A stretch of DNA of 63,313 nucleotides, counting the filler, from Actinomycetota bacterium (GTDB lineage Bacteria > Actinomycetota > CADDZG01 > JAHWKV01 > JAOPZY01), in assembly GCA_025963875.1 (NCBI GenBank). It is 4 parts of 4 records of this genome, joined end to end, with 100 filler letters (N's around TTAATTAATTAA, not from the genome) between each part and the next. Parts side by side here need not be neighbours in the genome. Positions count along the whole stretch, not along the records: positions 38,569 to 63,313 come from JAOPZY010000141.1; 3 more parts are not named here. The stretch is one strand, 5' to 3'. Made by a program: the position numbers. Below are positions 51,001 to 60,000 of this stretch, one piece after another (position 1 is the stretch's first letter; every line of letters begins with the position of its first letter).

Positions 51001-54000
51001 CTCCACGCCCGAATGCAGGTCCGAGACCACTTTGACCGCCACGCGTTTACTTTATCCGGCGCCTTGAGGGGCGCCTCGGGCACCCTATCCTGAGGCCGCC
51101 GCCCCACCCACCGCAGAGACAAGGAGGCCGAGGCTGCCGTCCCCGGTTGTTCGCCCCCTGCTTCATCCCGGGGCTGTCCTGTTCGACTACGGGCACACCC
51201 TGGTCGACTTCCAGAGGCTGCCAGGTGCCCTGGTGGCGGCCTACGGGGACATCCGAGCACGCATCGAGCACCTGGTCGAGCACGAGCTGCCCGAGGCGGA
51301 GGAGTTGGCCCGCCAGGTGACCGGCGCGGTGGACGTGCTCATCACCCAGTCCTACCTCGAGCGCAGGCTCCAGGAGTTCGACATCGTCGAGCTGCTGGCC
51401 GAGGCCTTCGCCGGCATCGGGATCACCCTCGGCCCGGAGGTCGCCGAGGAGATCGTGGCCATCGATCACCGGGCGTTCACGGAATCCGTCACGGTGCCCG
51501 ACTCGACGATCCGGGTGCTGGAGACGCTCCAGGGACGAGGCTGGCGGATGGGCCTGGTCTCGAACATGCACCTGCGGGCGGATCTCATGCACGCCGACCT
51601 GGCGGCCCTCGGGCTGGACCGGTTCCTGTCCGCGACGGTGTTCAGCTCCGAGCTGGGCTGGCGCAAGCCCGACGCACGGATCTTCACTGCCGCGCTGCAG
51701 CGCCTGGGCGTGGGACCCGAAGAGGCGGTGTTCGTGGGCGATCGACTGCGCGACGACATCGCCGGCGCCCGTGCTGTCGGGATGCGGACCGTACTCACCC
51801 GCGAGTTCCGCGACGAGATCGAGGGTCCCGAGCGGGCGGACGCCCGCCGGTTCTGGCGCAGCGGTGAAGACATCGCGGCCCTCCGCGCAGACCGCAGCAT
51901 CCGTGCCCTCGCGGAGCTGCCGGCCGTCCTCGAAGACTGGGGCCGTGATCACGCATGACCCAGACGACCAGGGCGGCCGGTTAGGTGCGCTGAATAACCC
52001 GATTGTTGGGCTGGCGGTTCGTCACTGGATGGTCCATGAACGTGGAGTCGTAGCTGAACGCGGAACCCGTCCGTTCCAGGGGAATTACAGTCCGATTTCT
52101 CAAATTCAGGCGCTTCCATCGTCGGATTAAAGTTCTCACATCCGCCCACGCCAAGCGCCCAATCCGCCCAATAATGGTCTCTCGTTTTGGTTCTTTGATG
52201 GGATAGTAGAAGAGCCAAACCGGTCTGAAATTTCCCACTAAACAAGGAGCAAATTGCATGCGGGCGCGCGTACCCCAGTTTCTGACGGCGGGGCTTGTCC
52301 CCCGGGCAACAACCCTCGGGCTGCTTGCCTCATTGATGGCCATCGCCCCCTTCGGAGTCTCGACGCCGGCGGCGCAGGCGGCGACGGGCACCATCACGGA
52401 ATTCAACAACGCCAAGCGGCCGGGCATCATCCAGAACTCGAGCTCCGACCCTCTCGGTCTCACGGTTGGTCCCGACGGCAACCTGTGGTTCACGGATGCG
52501 GGTGAGAACCTGCAGGCAACAGGAGGCGCCGCAGCGCCGCCGAAGCAGATCGGCAGGTTCCACCTCGCCGACGGGTCGCTGTCGTTCAACCCGGCCATCG
52601 ACTGGTTCCCCAACGGCGAGCCCGGCAGCGTCCCGGTCGCCATCGCAAACAGCGGGGACAACAACCTGTGGTTCGCCAACTTCGGCACCGCGGCCAACGA
52701 CGTCGGGGCCATCAATTCCCAGGGCGGCAACCCGCTCGGCGCGGCGAACCCCTTCGGGGTTGGCGTCCTCGCCAGCACCATCACCGACATCACGCTGGGA
52801 CCGGACAACAACATGTGGTTCACGATGTTCGGCTCGGGCAACATCGGCCACATCGGCAGGGACGGCAGCAATTTCACCGCCCTCAAGCTCCCGGGAGGGC
52901 GCAGCGCTGCCCAACCCGTCACCACGACGGTCACGCAGAACCCCCAGGCCATCACCGCGGGCCCTGACGGCAACCTGTGGTTCACCATCCAGCAGTCGAA
53001 GACCATCGGCCGGATGACCCCGGGAGGGACTTTCACCGAGTTCACGCCGCCGACCACCCTCCACGGCCTCGCCGGCATCACCGCCGGTTCCGACGGGAAC
53101 CTCTACGTCACGGCCGAGGGTGACAGCACCGCCAACCCTTCGCAGCCCATGCGCCCCGTCATGAGCGGCAACGGGTCGCTGGCCCGCGTGACGCCGTCCG
53201 GTGTAATCGTCCCCATCCCGGCGCCGGCCGGCGCACCCAGGTTCTCGCCGAACGCCATCGTCAACGGCCCGGACGGCAACCTGTGGTTCACCGACGTCGG
53301 CGACAACTCCATCTGGCGCTTCAACCCGCTCACCGCAGCCTTCACGCCCTTCCCCGTCCCGACTCCTGGCGCCTTCTCCGGCAACGTACAGCCCACCGGC
53401 ATCACGGTCGGCCCCGATGGCAACATCTGGTTCACGGAGAACAACGCAGTGGGGGGCCTCGCCCGCCTGACCATCGATCCGCTCGTGCAGCTCTCCCCCT
53501 CGCCCGCCGGCTTCGGGACCCACCTTCCCGGCTCGACCACCAACGTGGCCGTCGTGGCCTCCAACACCACCAGCAACGCCTACACGATCACGAGCGCCCC
53601 CACGATCACCGGGCCGAACGCGGGTGACTTCACCGTCGTCGGCAACAACTGCAACGCCACGTCGCCGCTCGGGCCGCTTGCCTCCTGCACGATGACCATC
53701 CGGTTCAAGCCAACCGGCACCGGCACGAGGTCGGCGACCCTGACCCTCGGGGTGAACGACAACGCGACCCCCCACACGGCGCTGCTCACCGGCGTGGGTC
53801 AGGCGGCGGTTCCGACCTTCGGCCCCGCCAGCGCCGCCTTCGGCAACTCGTTCGTCCACCAGGTGACGAGACCCGTCAACTTCAGCCTGACCAACGTCAC
53901 CGGCGTGCCGGTGAAGGTGAACTCGGTCACGCTGGGCCAGCCCCACCCGAACGACTTCATCATCGGGAGCGACACCTGCACGGGCGCAACCGTGCCGGAC

Positions 54001-57000: not shown

Positions 57001-60000
57001 CTGTCTTTTGACGGGTTCGGTGCGTTTTGTCACCGTGCCAAGCCAGAGAGGTTAATCCAAAGCAGCAGAACGTACACAAAGCGGCAGAAGTTCAAAAAGC
57101 GGTATGCCGATCATTCGCCTGCAAAAGGAGCGTTTGTATGTCTGAATCCGCGCGCCGGTTCCCCCTCTTGGGAGCACTGTCACGCCTCGTGGTCCTCGCA
57201 TTCGTCGCCTCGGCAGTCTTCTTCTGGGTCCCGGGGGCCGGCAAGGCCTTCGCCGCGAACCCCCCGGTCGGCAGCGTGGGCCACATCGACGAGTACAACT
57301 CCGCCCCCACGGCCAGTGAGTCCGTTTCCGACCCGGTCGGCATCGCAGCCGGGACCGGCAACACCCTTATCTTCGTCGACTCGACGAACAGCACGGTGGG
57401 CCGGATCAATACCGACGGCACCGGGATCGTGGCGACCAATACCAACGCCAGCGGAGCATCCCCGCTGGGCATCGCAAAGGGCGCCGACAGCAACTACTAC
57501 TTCACGGAAAGCAACATCAGCGTCGACCAGACGGCACGGTTCAACGTCCCCGGAGGGTCGATCAACGAGTTCAACGTCGTCCCGCCGGGTTCCGTCCCCA
57601 CCGGCATCACCGCCGGGCCGGCGGGCGATGCCAACAGCATGTGGTACACGGAAAACGCCACCTCCAACATCGGGAGGATCCCGACGAGCGCAGCAGGCGG
57701 CGCCACGGGCACAGCCTTCCCAGTGACTTCGGGCGGCGCCCCGCTCGCCATCGTCGCCGGCCCGAACGGCAACATCTGGTTCACCGAGCAGCTTGGCCTC
57801 ACGCCCGGCAGCGGCGGCACGATCGGCGAGATGACCACTGCCGGCACCATCGTCGGCGAGACCCAGGTGAACGCGGTCACGACCACGGTCGGGCTCGATG
57901 GCCTCGCCGTGGGCCCGGACGTCACCGCAAGCAGCACCGCGCTCTGGTTCACTGAGCAGAGCACGGGCGTTGTCGGCAAGATGAACCCCACAACGCACGT
58001 GCCAACCGAGTTCCAGATCACCGGCACTGCCCACCCGACCGCCATCACGGCAGGCCCCGACGGGAACATGTATTTCGTCGACCCAGGCAACAACGCGATC
58101 GGCCAGATCACCCCTGCCGGCTCGTTCGTCGAATTCCCCACGCCGACCACCGGCGTCTTCGGCCCCAACGCAGCGCCGTTCGGTATCACGGCCGGGCCAG
58201 ACGGCAAGATCTGGTTCACCGAGCAGACCGGCGTCGGTGGGGGCAAGGTCGGTAAGCTCACGATCACCGCCGCCGTCGCTCCCCCAACAGTCACCATCGC
58301 CCCCAATCCGCTGAACTTCGGAAACCAGGCCATCGGCACGACCAGTACGGCGATGACGGCGACCGTCACCGCCTCCGGTGGGACGGTGAACGTCACATCG
58401 GTCACCCTCGGCGGCACCAACGCGGCCGATTTCCACCAAACCAATGACTGCACGACGGTCACTACGTTCTGCACCGTCACCGGGACGTTCACGCCCACCG
58501 GGACCGCCACGGGCGCCCGCACGGCCACGGTGTCGTTCGCCGACAACGCCGCGGGGACCCCGCAGACGCTCACCCTGAACGGCACCGTACCGGGCGGGAT
58601 CGCCGGGGTCGTTCCCGCGGTGACGAACTTCTTCAACCACGCCCTGGGCACGACGTCCACGGTCCACACCATCTCCCTGGTCAACGGTGGCACCACGACC
58701 ATGACGGTCAGTTCCTTCAGCATCACCGGCGCCGGCAAGAGCGACTTCCCCGTTGCCCCCGGAACAGACCACTGCACCGGGGCCAGCGTGGCTCCCAGCG
58801 GCTTCTGCACGGTCGGCGTCGTCTTCGCTCCCAGCGTCGAGGGGCTGCGCCAGGCAGCCATCGTGTTCGTCAGCAACGCAGCGTCCGGCTCACAGATGGG
58901 CCTGCTCGTGGGCCGCGGCGTCCACTCCGCCGGCTACTGGCTCGGCGCTGCCGACGGAGGCATCTTCACCTTCGGTTCGGGGGCCGGCTTCTTCGGCTCC
59001 ACCGGCTCCATCAAGCTCAACAAGCCGATCGTGGGCATGGCGGCCACCCCGGACAGCGCCGGGTACTGGTTGGTGGCGTCCGACGGCGGCATCTTCGCCT
59101 TCGGCAATGCCGGCTTCTTCGGTTCCACCGGCTCCATCAAGCTGAACCAGCCCATCGTGGCCATGGCGGCGACACCGACCGGCCTGGGCTACTGGCTCAT
59201 CGCATCCGACGGGGGCGTCTTCGCCTTCGGTGACGCCAAGTTCTTCGGCTCGACCGGCTCGATCAAACTCAACAAGCCGATTGCCGGGGCGGCGGCGACG
59301 CAGGATGGTCAGGGCTACTGGATGGTGGCCACCGATGGGGGCGTGTTCTCCTTCGGTGACGCCACCTTCAAGGGATCGACCGGATCCATCACGCTCAACA
59401 AGCCGATGGTGGCCATGGCCCCGACACCGGACGGCAACGGCTACTGGCTCGTGGCATCCGACGGCGGCATCTTCGCCTTCGGCGCTTCGTTCTTCGGATC
59501 GACGGGCTCGATCAAGCTGAACCAGCCGATCGTCGGGGCAGCGGCGACGCCGACGGGCAATGGCTACTGGCTCGTGGCCACCGACGGCGGCATCTTCGCC
59601 TTCGGCGACGCCCCGTTCTTCGGCTCCACGGGGTCGATCAAGCTCAACAAGCCGATCGTGGCCATGGCACCGGCGCTGTAGCCAAACGCCGGACCAACGA
59701 CCGGGGGCCCCTCACGGGGCCCCCGGTTTCTTTGTATGATTAAGCATCATTATCATGTTTATTCATACAAAGAAGCTCAGCCCTGCCAGAACTCAGCCCC
59801 CGAAGCGGCGGACCCGGGCCGAATACTCGAGGATGGCATCGACGAGGTCGGCCTCGTCGATGTCGGGGCAGTACTTCGTCGTGAAGACCAGCTCGGCGTA
59901 GGCGGCCTGCAGCGGCAGGAACCCCGAGGAGCGGTATTCCCCCGACGTCCGCCACACGAGGTCGGGGTTGGGGTGGGGCTGGCCGGTGGTGTCGAGGAAG

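Follow-up and report, generated by a model that had tools for sequence, protein, structure and literature searches.

A 42-residue repeat of secreted actinobacterial proteins and phage lysins predicted to form a six-bladed propeller and proposed as a cell-wall binding module

We describe a 42-residue repeat (consensus GYWLVASDGGIFxFGDAxFxGSTGxxxLNKPIVGMAATPDGx) that defines a distinct and very large sequence family for which neither Pfam nor NCBIfam has a model. In the window, the 63,313-nucleotide stretch of an Actinomycetota genome (GCA_025963875.1) that was analysed, three tandem genes each end in six copies of it, and structure prediction makes it very probable that the resulting module folds as a compact six-bladed β-propeller. 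By inference, we think it quite likely that this module binds the cell envelope, namely the wall, non-covalently. Since phages place the repeat at the wall-binding end of their lysis enzymes, it most likely represents a new kind of wall anchor.

The three genes, which the first-pass annotation had reported as a tandem on contig C93, are + strand ORFs. Gene A (52258-54903, 881 residues) encodes a signal peptide, a Vgb_lyase-like propeller (Pfam search, E 6.5e-46), two choice-of-anchor D Ig-like domains (53473-54081, + strand; NCBIfam search, choice_anch_D E 2.4e-21) and, immediately 3' of them, the six-repeat module (54154-54900, + strand), which reaches the last residue. Its N-terminus, MRARVPQFLTAGLVPRATTLGLLASLMAIAPFGVSTPAAQA/AT, is Sec signal-like by eye, and its repeats start at residues 633, 675, 717, 759, 801 and 843; a profile matched the module at C93:15583-16323 in contig coordinates. 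Gene B (54990-56624) has 544 residues when counted from its first in-frame start, an ATG at 55065 giving 519 residues being the likelier start. It comprises a signal peptide (signal-like segment MHRHHPASTGFVARTLALVLLSSGLLLAAAPSTFA/VT), two choice-of-anchor D domains (55182-55808; E 1.7e-19) and six repeats (55875-56621, + strand), and its module was the one modelled with AlphaFold (folded sequence P0001, 55866-56621). Gene C (57027-59681, 884 residues from a TTG, with an ATG at 57138 and 847 residues likelier) has the architecture of gene A: the signal-like segment MSESARRFPLLGALSRLVVLAFVASAVFFWVPGAGKAFA/AN, a Vgb_lyase domain (E 4e-46), two choice-of-anchor D domains (58272-58886; E 2.2e-15) and six repeats (58932-59678, + strand, from the unit count and TRF). 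Its sequence identity is 44% with gene A along the entire length and 62% with gene B across the Ig-like domains and the module. The choice-of-anchor D positions come from a search of this genome with NF012200, converted to window positions by adding 38568 to the contig coordinates.

In each gene, GYW-anchored units occur exactly six times, at intervals of 41-43 residues, and continue to the last residues. At the DNA level, TRF reports arrays of period 126 with 5.9, 5.8 and 5.9 copies in genes A, B and C (75-80% matches; scores 785, 809 and 692), placed at 54148-54893 in gene A and at 58930-59668 in gene C. From the ORF translations, we read the flanks of the three genes as HAD hydrolase-like and isoprenoid-pathway-like genes.

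A single-repeat HMM matched 19 of the 25,422 ORFs of this genome (stop-to-stop, at least 80 residues), mostly 0-3 residues from the ORF end, in agreement with the earlier count of 19 mainly C-terminal occurrences. Pfam searches reproduced the reported partners in full (Peptidase_S8, Vgb_lyase, Lactonase, FG-GAP, Glyco_hydro_99, Big_1, Big_3_5, fn3, SpoIID and VanY). Wall enzymes account for only two of the 19 ORFs (SpoIID and VanY), the others carrying propellers, Ig arrays, an S8 protease or GH99. Inspection of the 14 ORFs with a readable N-terminal region showed a signal-peptide-like start in 13; in one protein (C165), the module is N-terminal, directly after the signal peptide and before the GH99 domain. 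Period-126 arrays number 16 genome-wide, replacing the 11 genes counted before. One of them, on C41, was rejected as an unrelated helical repeat, and another (C38, 1649-1989) lies in the N-terminal part of a module protein and not in the module itself.

No model in Pfam, NCBIfam or PHROGs covers the repeats, and searches of PDB sequences gave a best E of 0.15 with a single sequence and 0.27 with a profile. The previous claim that neither Pfam nor the PDB contains the repeat thus stands, apart from two short matches of about 20-25 residues in one module that we read as motif noise: BPL_C (27.4 bits, cut-off 21) and Ribosomal_L24e (25.8 bits, cut-off 27). The family is large, with 20,573 clusters at 50% identity matching the repeat, and homologue searches were again saturated (7,991 and 7,998 of 8,000 scored candidates matching). 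Its distribution across the phylum is patchy: profile matches occurred in 18 of 401 sampled genomes, four of them unpublished (G148, G391, G001 and G226). Nearly all of 78 related genome loci keep the 42-residue spacing, and in about 11 of these (L051 and L083, for example) the module is N-terminal, following the signal peptide.

The AlphaFold model of the whole 252-residue module (pLDDT 96.8, pTM 0.91) has 18 strands, three per repeat; each blade is formed by the strands PIVGMA, GYWLVA and GIFAF together with an irregular Gly-rich outer segment. In VIA-align, the best rows cover model residues 1-252 on six-bladed domains, led by the YWTD propeller of ApoER2 (5b4x; Z 18.2, rmsd 3.6, 228 aligned) and followed by nidogen (1npe, Z 18.0), the NHL domain of Brat (1q7f, Z 16.8), the sensor domain of PknD (1rwi, Z 16.5) and the lectin RSL (4csd, Z 15.8). 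The six-bladed lectins SapL1 (6trv, Z 14.5) and AAL (5mxc, Z 14.4) matched as well. Because Foldseek instead ranks seven-bladed WD40 proteins first (TM 0.55-0.63), we base the number of blades on the count of repeats together with these full-length matches. The resulting six departs from the five blades proposed earlier, a count that probably stems from truncation: the part folded then, residues 290-519 of the 519-residue form of gene B, begins by our numbering about 19 residues into repeat 1. The final strand of the protein is probably the one that completes blade 1, which would account for the module's usual position at the extreme end of the chain.

In sequence, the six blades are close to interchangeable. 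Across 28 six-blade modules, identity is 73.6% between blades of one protein and, between proteins, 68.3% at the same index and 67.4% at different indices; only about 9 of the 42 positions vary freely (157 blades tabulated). This near-equivalence leads us to expect one equivalent site per blade and hence multivalent binding of a repeating wall polymer, for which peptidoglycan glycan or a secondary wall glycopolymer would be candidates. Wall binding, multivalency and ligand class are all points that we infer: with the module, Sec-exported enzymes as well as propeller and Ig-stalk proteins would stay attached to the wall of Acidimicrobiia-type actinobacteria, and in phages of high-GC hosts the repeat would be the end of the amidase endolysins that targets the wall and would also serve in a tail protein.

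The proposal that the module binds the wall behind secreted enzymes and Ig stalks had already been made in the first-pass annotation; it gains independent support from phage endolysins and from the choice-of-anchor D domains. The repeat is encoded in 14 viral-contig proteins, nine of which begin with an Amidase_2 or PHROG endolysin/amidase domain (N-acetylmuramoyl-L-alanine amidase/endolysin) and carry the repeats behind it at the C-terminus; cellular proteins among the longer homologues also combine an amidase with the module. Viral contigs may include misassigned host DNA. Among three viral contexts checked, two (L115 and L117) carry genes for a major tail protein and a tape measure just upstream of the lysin gene, L117 with an additional tail-fibre-assembly match beside it, and the third (L110) shows only an endonuclease VII match. 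In the deposited phage MK557849, divergent repeats occur in a 1,304-residue protein that follows the minor tail protein.

The 14 viral ORFs contain one (2 ORFs), two (3), three (6), six (2) or twelve (1) blades, with no four- or five-blade forms among them. Proteins with one, two or three blades could reach a six-blade ring as hexamers, trimers or dimers. Two copies of one three-blade lysin tail (L108, residues 186-318) were predicted to form a head-to-tail pair in which blade 1 of one copy joins blade 3 of its partner, with a pair score of 0.90 in 3/3 runs against 0.00 for the best control, at least 97% of contacts agreeing and a partner pLDDT of at least 93. Of 30 proteins solved as one-chain pairs, 21 reach the pair-score mark, as against none of 23 solved as single chains. 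The predicted pairing may stem from what the model has learned about propellers in general and not from a real interface.

All three window genes place the module behind choice-of-anchor D domains. The name denotes passenger domains with a variable C-terminal anchor; for choice-of-anchor A, the available part of the source describes surface proteins with alternative anchors (10.1101/2023.03.06.531300). Elsewhere in this genome, choice-of-anchor D proteins have, in place of the module, a membrane helix at the N-terminus (C14) or a short tail of hydrophobic residues (C171). The earlier suggestion that the module takes the place of LysM, SLH and CWB domains does not hold in that form: the genome also encodes four sortases, LysM in two ORFs, PG_binding_1 in five and about six LP[VI]TG tails, and only SLH was not found in it. 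The retention of sortases, LysM and PG_binding_1 speaks against the wall reading, as do the partners in this genome, most of which are not wall enzymes, so that general carbohydrate or protein binding would fit them equally; the patchy spread (18/401) is also not what one would expect if the target were peptidoglycan, which is universal. PG_binding_1 is already present in some homologues, and the module may therefore bind something else than peptidoglycan.

A lectin or carbohydrate-binding module that brings enzymes to environmental substrates or to the cell's own exopolysaccharide matrix, instead of keeping them on its wall, is an unlikely alternative. It would suit the near-identical blades, the resemblance to the six-bladed lectins RSL, AAL and SapL1, and partners such as GH99, GH43, GH18, GH3, sialidase/BNR, S8 proteases and PQQ-like propellers. 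On the other hand, peptidoglycan-acting domains are the commonest annotated class among the 120 short homologues listed, with 23 of 48 Pfam-annotated rows by hand count (NlpC/P60 11, VanY 6, 3D 2, and M23, YkuD, transglycosylase and CHAP one each); among the longer homologues listed they occur in 13 of 84 annotated rows (YkuD with PG_binding_1, Amidase_2/3, SpoIID, NlpC/P60, M23 and CHAP). Endolysins, moreover, must bind the host wall and not an environmental glycan, and the repeat fills their C-terminal wall-binding slot; the position behind choice-of-anchor D domains argues in the same direction. Somewhat less likely still is a protein docking module, whether for an S-layer or scaffold, of cohesin-dockerin type, or mainly for oligomerisation. 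Many six- and seven-bladed propellers do bind proteins (YWTD, NHL, WD40, TolB), the 19 paralogues resemble dockerin-bearing proteins in their common terminal module, and the viral three-blade tail is predicted to self-associate. That association, however, closes a ring and makes no new surface, inspection of the window flanks showed no conserved partner gene next to the module genes, and lysin wall-binding domains normally target wall polymers.

We consider it improbable that the module senses a ligand or has a catalytic or inhibitory function, comparable to the PknD sensor, BLIP-II, or lactonase or Vgb-lyase propellers. The fold does resemble the PknD sensor and lactonase/Drp35-type propellers, and three-stranded blades recall BLIP-II. 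Yet none of the 240 homologues listed has a kinase or other signalling domain as a partner, the 28 six-blade modules show no blade-specific conservation that would mark a single active centre, and viral forms of one to three blades speak against such a central site. Most improbable is a C-terminal sorting or secretion signal read by an export or attachment machine, like the T9SS C-terminal domain or PEP-CTERM. The extreme C-terminal position in most paralogues (tail 0-3 residues) would fit, as would the slot, which in other choice-of-anchor proteins holds sorting signals as far as the available text on them goes. But the module is N-terminal in C165 and in the related loci mentioned above, its 250 residues far exceed known sorting tags, and phage lysins, made in the cytoplasm, carry it too.

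Among known propellers, the RCC1_2/BLIP-II type shares short blades (38-42 residues) and a D-G-x-hydrophobic-x-x-aromatic-G motif with the module. Sub-threshold hints point the same way (HERC2 RCC1-like domain, E 0.39; WD40_RLD, E 3e-4 for one viral protein), and RCC1_2 is annotated on 16% of one Atlas cluster. RCC1-like propellers have seven blades, the hhalign probability is 0.4%, and none of the 27 RCC1_2 matches of this genome falls in a module ORF. The NHL/YWTD propellers, including the highly symmetric PknD sensor of Mycobacterium tuberculosis, are structurally closest over the entire module (Z 16.5-18.2, 206-229 aligned residues), with blades of about 42 residues and, by our own reading, a similar motif order, in which a hydrophobic strand with a small last residue is followed by an aromatic strand with D as its last residue and then by a G-x-hydrophobic strand. 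Nevertheless, the repeats give no match to Pfam NHL or to other propeller repeat models even when E values up to 10 are allowed, NHL matches in this genome fall elsewhere, and the hhalign probability with the NHL/Vgb-like propellers of the same proteins is 0.1%.

RSL is a trimer. With six near-identical blades, the module resembles the propeller lectins RSL and BambL (two blades in each of three chains), AAL and SapL1 (six blades in one chain) and UmbA4, and the fractional viral forms would build a six-blade ring as RSL does. It differs from RSL, AAL and SapL1 in sequence (4-6% identity in structural alignments); its model has three regular strands per blade, and no sugar-binding residues could be mapped onto it. 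According to the available part of the source, UmbA4, a six-bladed propeller lectin of Streptomyces with Ca-binding loops, binds wall teichuronic acid (10.1101/2025.04.24.650519), and would thus provide an actinobacterial precedent for the recognition of a wall glycopolymer. Compared with LysM, SH3b, PG_binding_1, SLH, CWB2, choline-binding repeats and LGFP, the module lacks a sequence match to their models and is predicted to be a closed six-bladed propeller instead of small independent domains or a β-solenoid. Like them, it is terminal, repeat-built and non-catalytic, recurs in many secreted paralogues and in fusions with peptidoglycan hydrolases, and is reused at the C-termini of phage lysins.

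The three tandem genes on contig C93 lie on the plus strand: gene A at 52258-54903 (881 aa), gene B at 54990-56624 (544 aa) and gene C at 57027-59681 (884 aa). From our reading of the translations, the internal ATGs at 55065 (gene B) and 57138 (gene C), just before a signal-peptide-like segment, are the likelier starts of these two genes. Tandem Repeats Finder reports period-126 arrays of 5.9, 5.8 and 5.9 copies at the 3' ends of the three genes (75-80% matches, scores 692-809), and each protein contains exactly six GYW-anchored units, 41-43 residues apart, the last of which reaches the final residues. 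Genes A and C have one common architecture (44% identity over the full length), including an N-terminal Vgb_lyase-like propeller (Pfam, E about 1e-46) that is missing from gene B, which is 62% identical to gene C across the remainder. Two choice-of-anchor D Ig-like domains are present in each of the three proteins (NCBIfam NF012200, E 2e-15 to 2e-21). As to the stretch itself, it is not one continuous assembly piece, since positions 38569-63313 belong to C93 and 1-38568 are N's or come from elsewhere. A 12-nt unit is perfectly repeated in tandem (3.2 copies) at 62705-62742 and codes for a ATAKATAKATAK run near the C-terminus of a minus-strand ORF that ends at 62658 and that we read as IspG-like.

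The predicted model of the six-repeat module is a six-bladed propeller. The gene B module (252 residues), folded with a 50-sequence alignment, reached a pLDDT of 96.8 and a pTM of 0.91, with 18 strands, three per repeat, lying on PIVGMA, GYWLVA and GIFAF; no regular strand was observed in the Gly-rich GDAxFxGSTGxxxLNK segment. When this model was compared with 48,161 chains by VIA-align, the top matches were six-bladed domains spanning residues 1-252. Those of YWTD/NHL type gave Z 16.5-18.2 (rmsd 3.4-3.8, 206-229 residues aligned), among them the YWTD propellers of ApoER2 and nidogen (Z 18.2 and 18.0, rmsd 3.6-3.7, 228-229 aligned), Brat NHL (Z 16.8) and the PknD sensor of M. tuberculosis (Z 16.5); a monomeric RSL lectin (Z 15.8) and TolB (Z 14.9 for 7mx5, 14.6 for 1c5k) were also found. 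Foldseek, on the other hand, ranks seven-bladed WD40 proteins first (TM 0.55-0.63), and we therefore take the blade number from the repeat count of six and from the six-bladed matches over the full length. A blade's second strand opens the module and a first strand closes it, and the C-terminal strand would thus complete blade 1.

The first-pass annotation had instead described five blades, a count that the six repeats and 18 strands do not bear out and that most likely came from folding residues 290-519, which cut off the first half-repeat. A paralogue in the same genome, the S8 protease at C5:33997-37710 (L005), has only five repeats, three of which are identical in protein sequence. Its model (pLDDT 92.7, pTM 0.88) does not support a five-blade ring: in its best structural matches it aligns to five of the blades of six- and seven-bladed domains, and none of the 50 match rows was recognised by its entry title as a five-bladed propeller, save one 5-blade-fragment assembly (6r60, rank 29). 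The five repeats could be a recent amplification or, since three of them are identical, the collapse of one repeat in the short-read assembly. A five-bladed propeller is found in the phi11 receptor-binding protein, according to the passages of PMC6115969 that deal with it, and parts of PMC9218822 provide general background on repetitive propellers.

We did not find a significant sequence link between the repeat and any named propeller family in the PDB profile search, the own-genome RCC1_2 search or the hhalign comparisons. The predicted module shares its fold with the six-bladed NHL and YWTD propellers. The three modules scanned in isolation gave no row for the NHL repeat (PF01436) at E up to 10, and the NHL matches in gene A and on C82 correspond to the N-terminal Vgb-like part. 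Nor does the RCC1_2/BLIP-II model (PF13540) match the repeats: none of its 27 own-genome matches falls within a module ORF. With hhalign, two-blade or six-blade profiles compared with the own-genome RCC1_2, Vgb/NHL-like and FG-GAP propellers reached a probability of 0.4% at most, the value obtained against the RCC1_2 repeats, although such shallow, low-diversity profiles (Neff about 2) provide weak evidence of absence. PDB sequence searches returned nothing better than E 0.15 with one module and E 0.27 with a 36-sequence profile, and the profile rows, all sub-threshold, included an abrin-type lectin (E 0.27) and the RCC1-like part of HERC2 (E 0.39). Foldseek against BFVD yielded only generic propellers (TM up to 0.63), and the presence of RCC1_2 on 16% of the members of one Atlas cluster is a lead only. 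Outside the window, the genome encodes two further ORFs with a signal-like N-terminus, one of 945 aa at C7:4777-7611 (+) with about 21 RCC1_2 repeats of ~38 residues, the other of 544 aa at C159:1419-3050 (+) with about six. Both represent arrays of RCC1/BLIP-II-like propellers with short blades, separate from the 42-residue family.

The repeats of genes A, B and C are covered by neither Pfam nor NCBIfam. Scanned alone at E up to 10, the three modules matched only in short stretches of ~20-25 residues: BPL_C (27.4 bits, over a cut-off of 21) and Ribosomal_L24e (25.8 bits, sub-threshold) in one module (Pfam; window 54136-54900), and SH3-like fragments in others, all of which we treat as motif noise. 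The domain has no entry in Pfam (the 2025 copy and Pfam 38.1 in the Atlas), NCBIfam release 20, PHROGs or the PDB sequences; a name may exist in other InterPro member databases, CATH or ECOD. Literature searches, including the motif itself and endolysin, propeller, wall-binding and Acidimicrobiia themes, did not retrieve a description of the domain, and the motif matched only unrelated immunology work. For want of a Pfam or NCBIfam model and of a solved sequence relative, members of the family go under 'hypothetical', 'ribosomal protein L24E' or 'Esterase' in some homologue tables, the latter two names looking like annotation artefacts of the motif; the Atlas matches are 'hypothetical protein' clusters from Actinomycetota.

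A single-repeat HMM matched 19 of the 25,422 ORFs in this genome (3.84 Mb, 273 contigs), the same number of module proteins as reported earlier, and the earlier list of partner domains was likewise reproduced (FG-GAP, Vgb_lyase, Lactonase, Big_1, Peptidase_S8, Glyco_hydro_99, fn3, seventeen Big_3_5, SpoIID and VanY). Several of these ORFs are fragments at contig ends, and the module fragment on C78 is the C-terminus of a gene starting on C217. The GH99 protein carries the module at its N-terminal end, immediately behind the signal peptide. An unrelated period-126 array at C41:100-461 encodes a helical 42-residue repeat (AAQVKEALPDAEQVKDVAGKAV...), and the period of 126 alone is therefore no marker of the propeller family.

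The family is large. Word-indexed homologue searches were saturated (7,991 and 7,998 of 8,000 scored candidates matching), and a full HMMER scan of 1.84 billion cluster representatives found 20,573 proteins when the E limit was 1e-3 and 10,972 when it was 1e-30; the family thus has more than 20,000 clusters at 50% identity. In a species-representative genome collection, 615 of 620 pattern matches encode a relative; the best 80 of the 615 are almost all from Acidimicrobiia-type metagenome bins, Acidithrix ferrooxidans PY-F3 being a cultured strain among them. An evenly drawn sample of the phylum gave matches to the module in 18 of 401 genomes, a tally that partly rests on four unpublished positive genomes (G148, G391, G001 and G226). 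One related family of the phylum accounts for 13 positive genomes out of 26, with one or two matches each. The three proteins fetched from it (L119, L120 and L121, from genomes G033, G092 and G078) have 460-517 aa, comprising a signal peptide, a ~200-aa domain and five or six divergent repeats. Despite having no Pfam match, the ~200-aa domain appears peptidase-like (LAS/M15-like) by our reading of its SxHxxGxAxD ... HxDHVH motif, and in such proteins the module may be in its ancestral setting, that of a wall enzyme. A repeat variant (L122, G225:C1:1972000-1974400, ORF 862-2400) comes from a genome with nine matches that belongs to a different family of the phylum; its unit is ~56 residues long, with GNTYTLGLTGLGGSRPLAA in place of GSTGxxxLNK, and its repeats are N-terminal, behind a signal peptide.

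The proteins that carry the module are probably exported, as 13 of the 14 ORFs with a readable N-terminal region have a signal-peptide-like start (judged by eye). The fusion partners, from which its proposed role in wall binding was argued earlier, hold on a hand count of annotated homologues: peptidoglycan-acting domains occur in 23 of 48 Pfam-annotated short homologues and in 13 of 84 annotated longer ones. These domains are NlpC/P60, VanY, 3D, M23, YkuD, CHAP, transglycosylase, Amidase_2/3 and SpoIID, with SpoIID and VanY as the own-genome carriers; proteases, glycoside hydrolases, other propellers and Ig stalks are the other partners. The position of the module behind the choice-of-anchor D domains would fit an anchor role, and in this genome the same domain is also found with an N-terminal membrane helix or a short hydrophobic tail in place of the module. 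Two such paralogues without a propeller are at C14:40017-40655, with the N-terminal membrane helix, and at C171:6743-8260, ending in a short hydrophobic tail with two cysteines. Choice-of-anchor A denotes surface proteins with alternative anchors, in the sections of 10.1101/2023.03.06.531300 concerned with them, a meaning that we extend to family D from the NCBIfam name only. For this genome we reject the further claim that other anchors are replaced by the module: four sortase genes, about six LP[VI]TG tails, LysM in two ORFs and PG_binding_1 in five are all present, and SLH is the one not found (genome 94.6% complete). The two NlpC/P60 proteins of the genome do not carry the module.

Phages also use the repeat. 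Fourteen contigs encode it in an IMG/VR scan (59-69% G+C), and nine of the 14 viral proteins carry an Amidase_2 or PHROG 'endolysin/amidase' domain at the N-terminus and, behind it, the repeats at the C-terminus, for which PHROGs has no family. Of three contigs checked, two bore out a phage context: in L115 the major tail and tape-measure genes are just upstream of the lysin gene, and in L117 a tape-measure gene is upstream and a tail-fibre-assembly match just downstream; L110 gave an endonuclease VII match only. The one deposited phage matched, MK557849 from mangrove soil, has divergent repeats in a protein of 1,304 aa that comes immediately behind the minor tail protein. A lysin tail and a tail protein both need to recognise the host envelope, and the phage use of the repeat is new, independent evidence for wall binding. 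The 1,025-aa protein encoded by ORF 4963-8037 of viral contig L105 (IMGVR_UViG_3300036771_000101) contains about 12 divergent repeats, enough for two rings, is matched by neither Pfam nor PHROGs and could be a receptor-binding protein.

Counted with a profile built from 165 blades, the viral proteins have one blade (two ORFs), two (three), three (six), six (two) or twelve (one), while none of the 14 has four or five; unlike the cellular modules, the fractional units open on a blade's first strand. The three-blade tail from viral contig L108 was predicted to pair with a second copy of itself, scoring 0.90 in all three runs (best control 0.00), with at least 97% contact agreement and a partner pLDDT of at least 93; of proteins solved as pairs of one chain, 21 of 30 reached the pairing mark, and of those solved as single chains, none of 23 did. 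In the predicted pair, blade 1 of one copy packs on blade 3 of the other, as needed for ring closure. This prediction supports assembly without demonstrating it, and may partly reflect the model's knowledge of propellers.

Several features point to how the module could bind. Across 28 six-blade modules, blades within one protein are 73.6% identical, while blades of different proteins are 68.3% identical when they share an index and 67.4% when they do not; in a table of 157 blades, free variation is limited to about nine of the 42 positions. The blades are nearly interchangeable, a pattern that fits one equivalent putative site on each of them and a multivalent hold on a repeating polymer, such as symmetric propeller lectins have. 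A functional precedent comes from Streptomyces, where a six-bladed propeller lectin binds wall teichuronic acid (10.1101/2025.04.24.650519). Since the distribution is patchy and homologues already carrying PG_binding_1 exist, the putative ligand would be a lineage-specific wall polymer and not generic peptidoglycan.

A more far-reaching reading, to which we give somewhat less than an even chance as a whole, is that Acidimicrobiia-type actinobacteria have in this propeller their main non-covalent surface anchor, and that phages use it fractionally as a modular wall-binding unit. A one-blade lysin would form a hexamer, a two-blade lysin a trimer and a three-blade lysin a dimer, each completing the same six-site ring, the blade count setting the oligomeric state and valency of the enzyme, and a lineage-specific wall glycopolymer as ligand would account for the patchy distribution. 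Should the wall-anchor reading hold, the module would define the surface proteome of a little-studied actinobacterial class, most of it uncultured; lysin engineering and the labelling of these cells would gain a new type of wall-binding domain, and the natural series of one, two, three and six blades would lend itself to the study of propeller assembly from fragments.

The likeness of the module to the beta-propeller lectins of RSL/AAL type is one of fold alone (Z 14.4-15.8, 4-6% identity). A catalytic domain followed by a wall-binding domain is the classic layout of Gram-positive lysins, and the viral proteins combining an amidase with the repeat have the same layout. We rate the module as a new family within the non-covalent wall-binding modules, with binding itself putative, set apart by a fold unusual for that kind and by an unusual fractional-blade series in phages.
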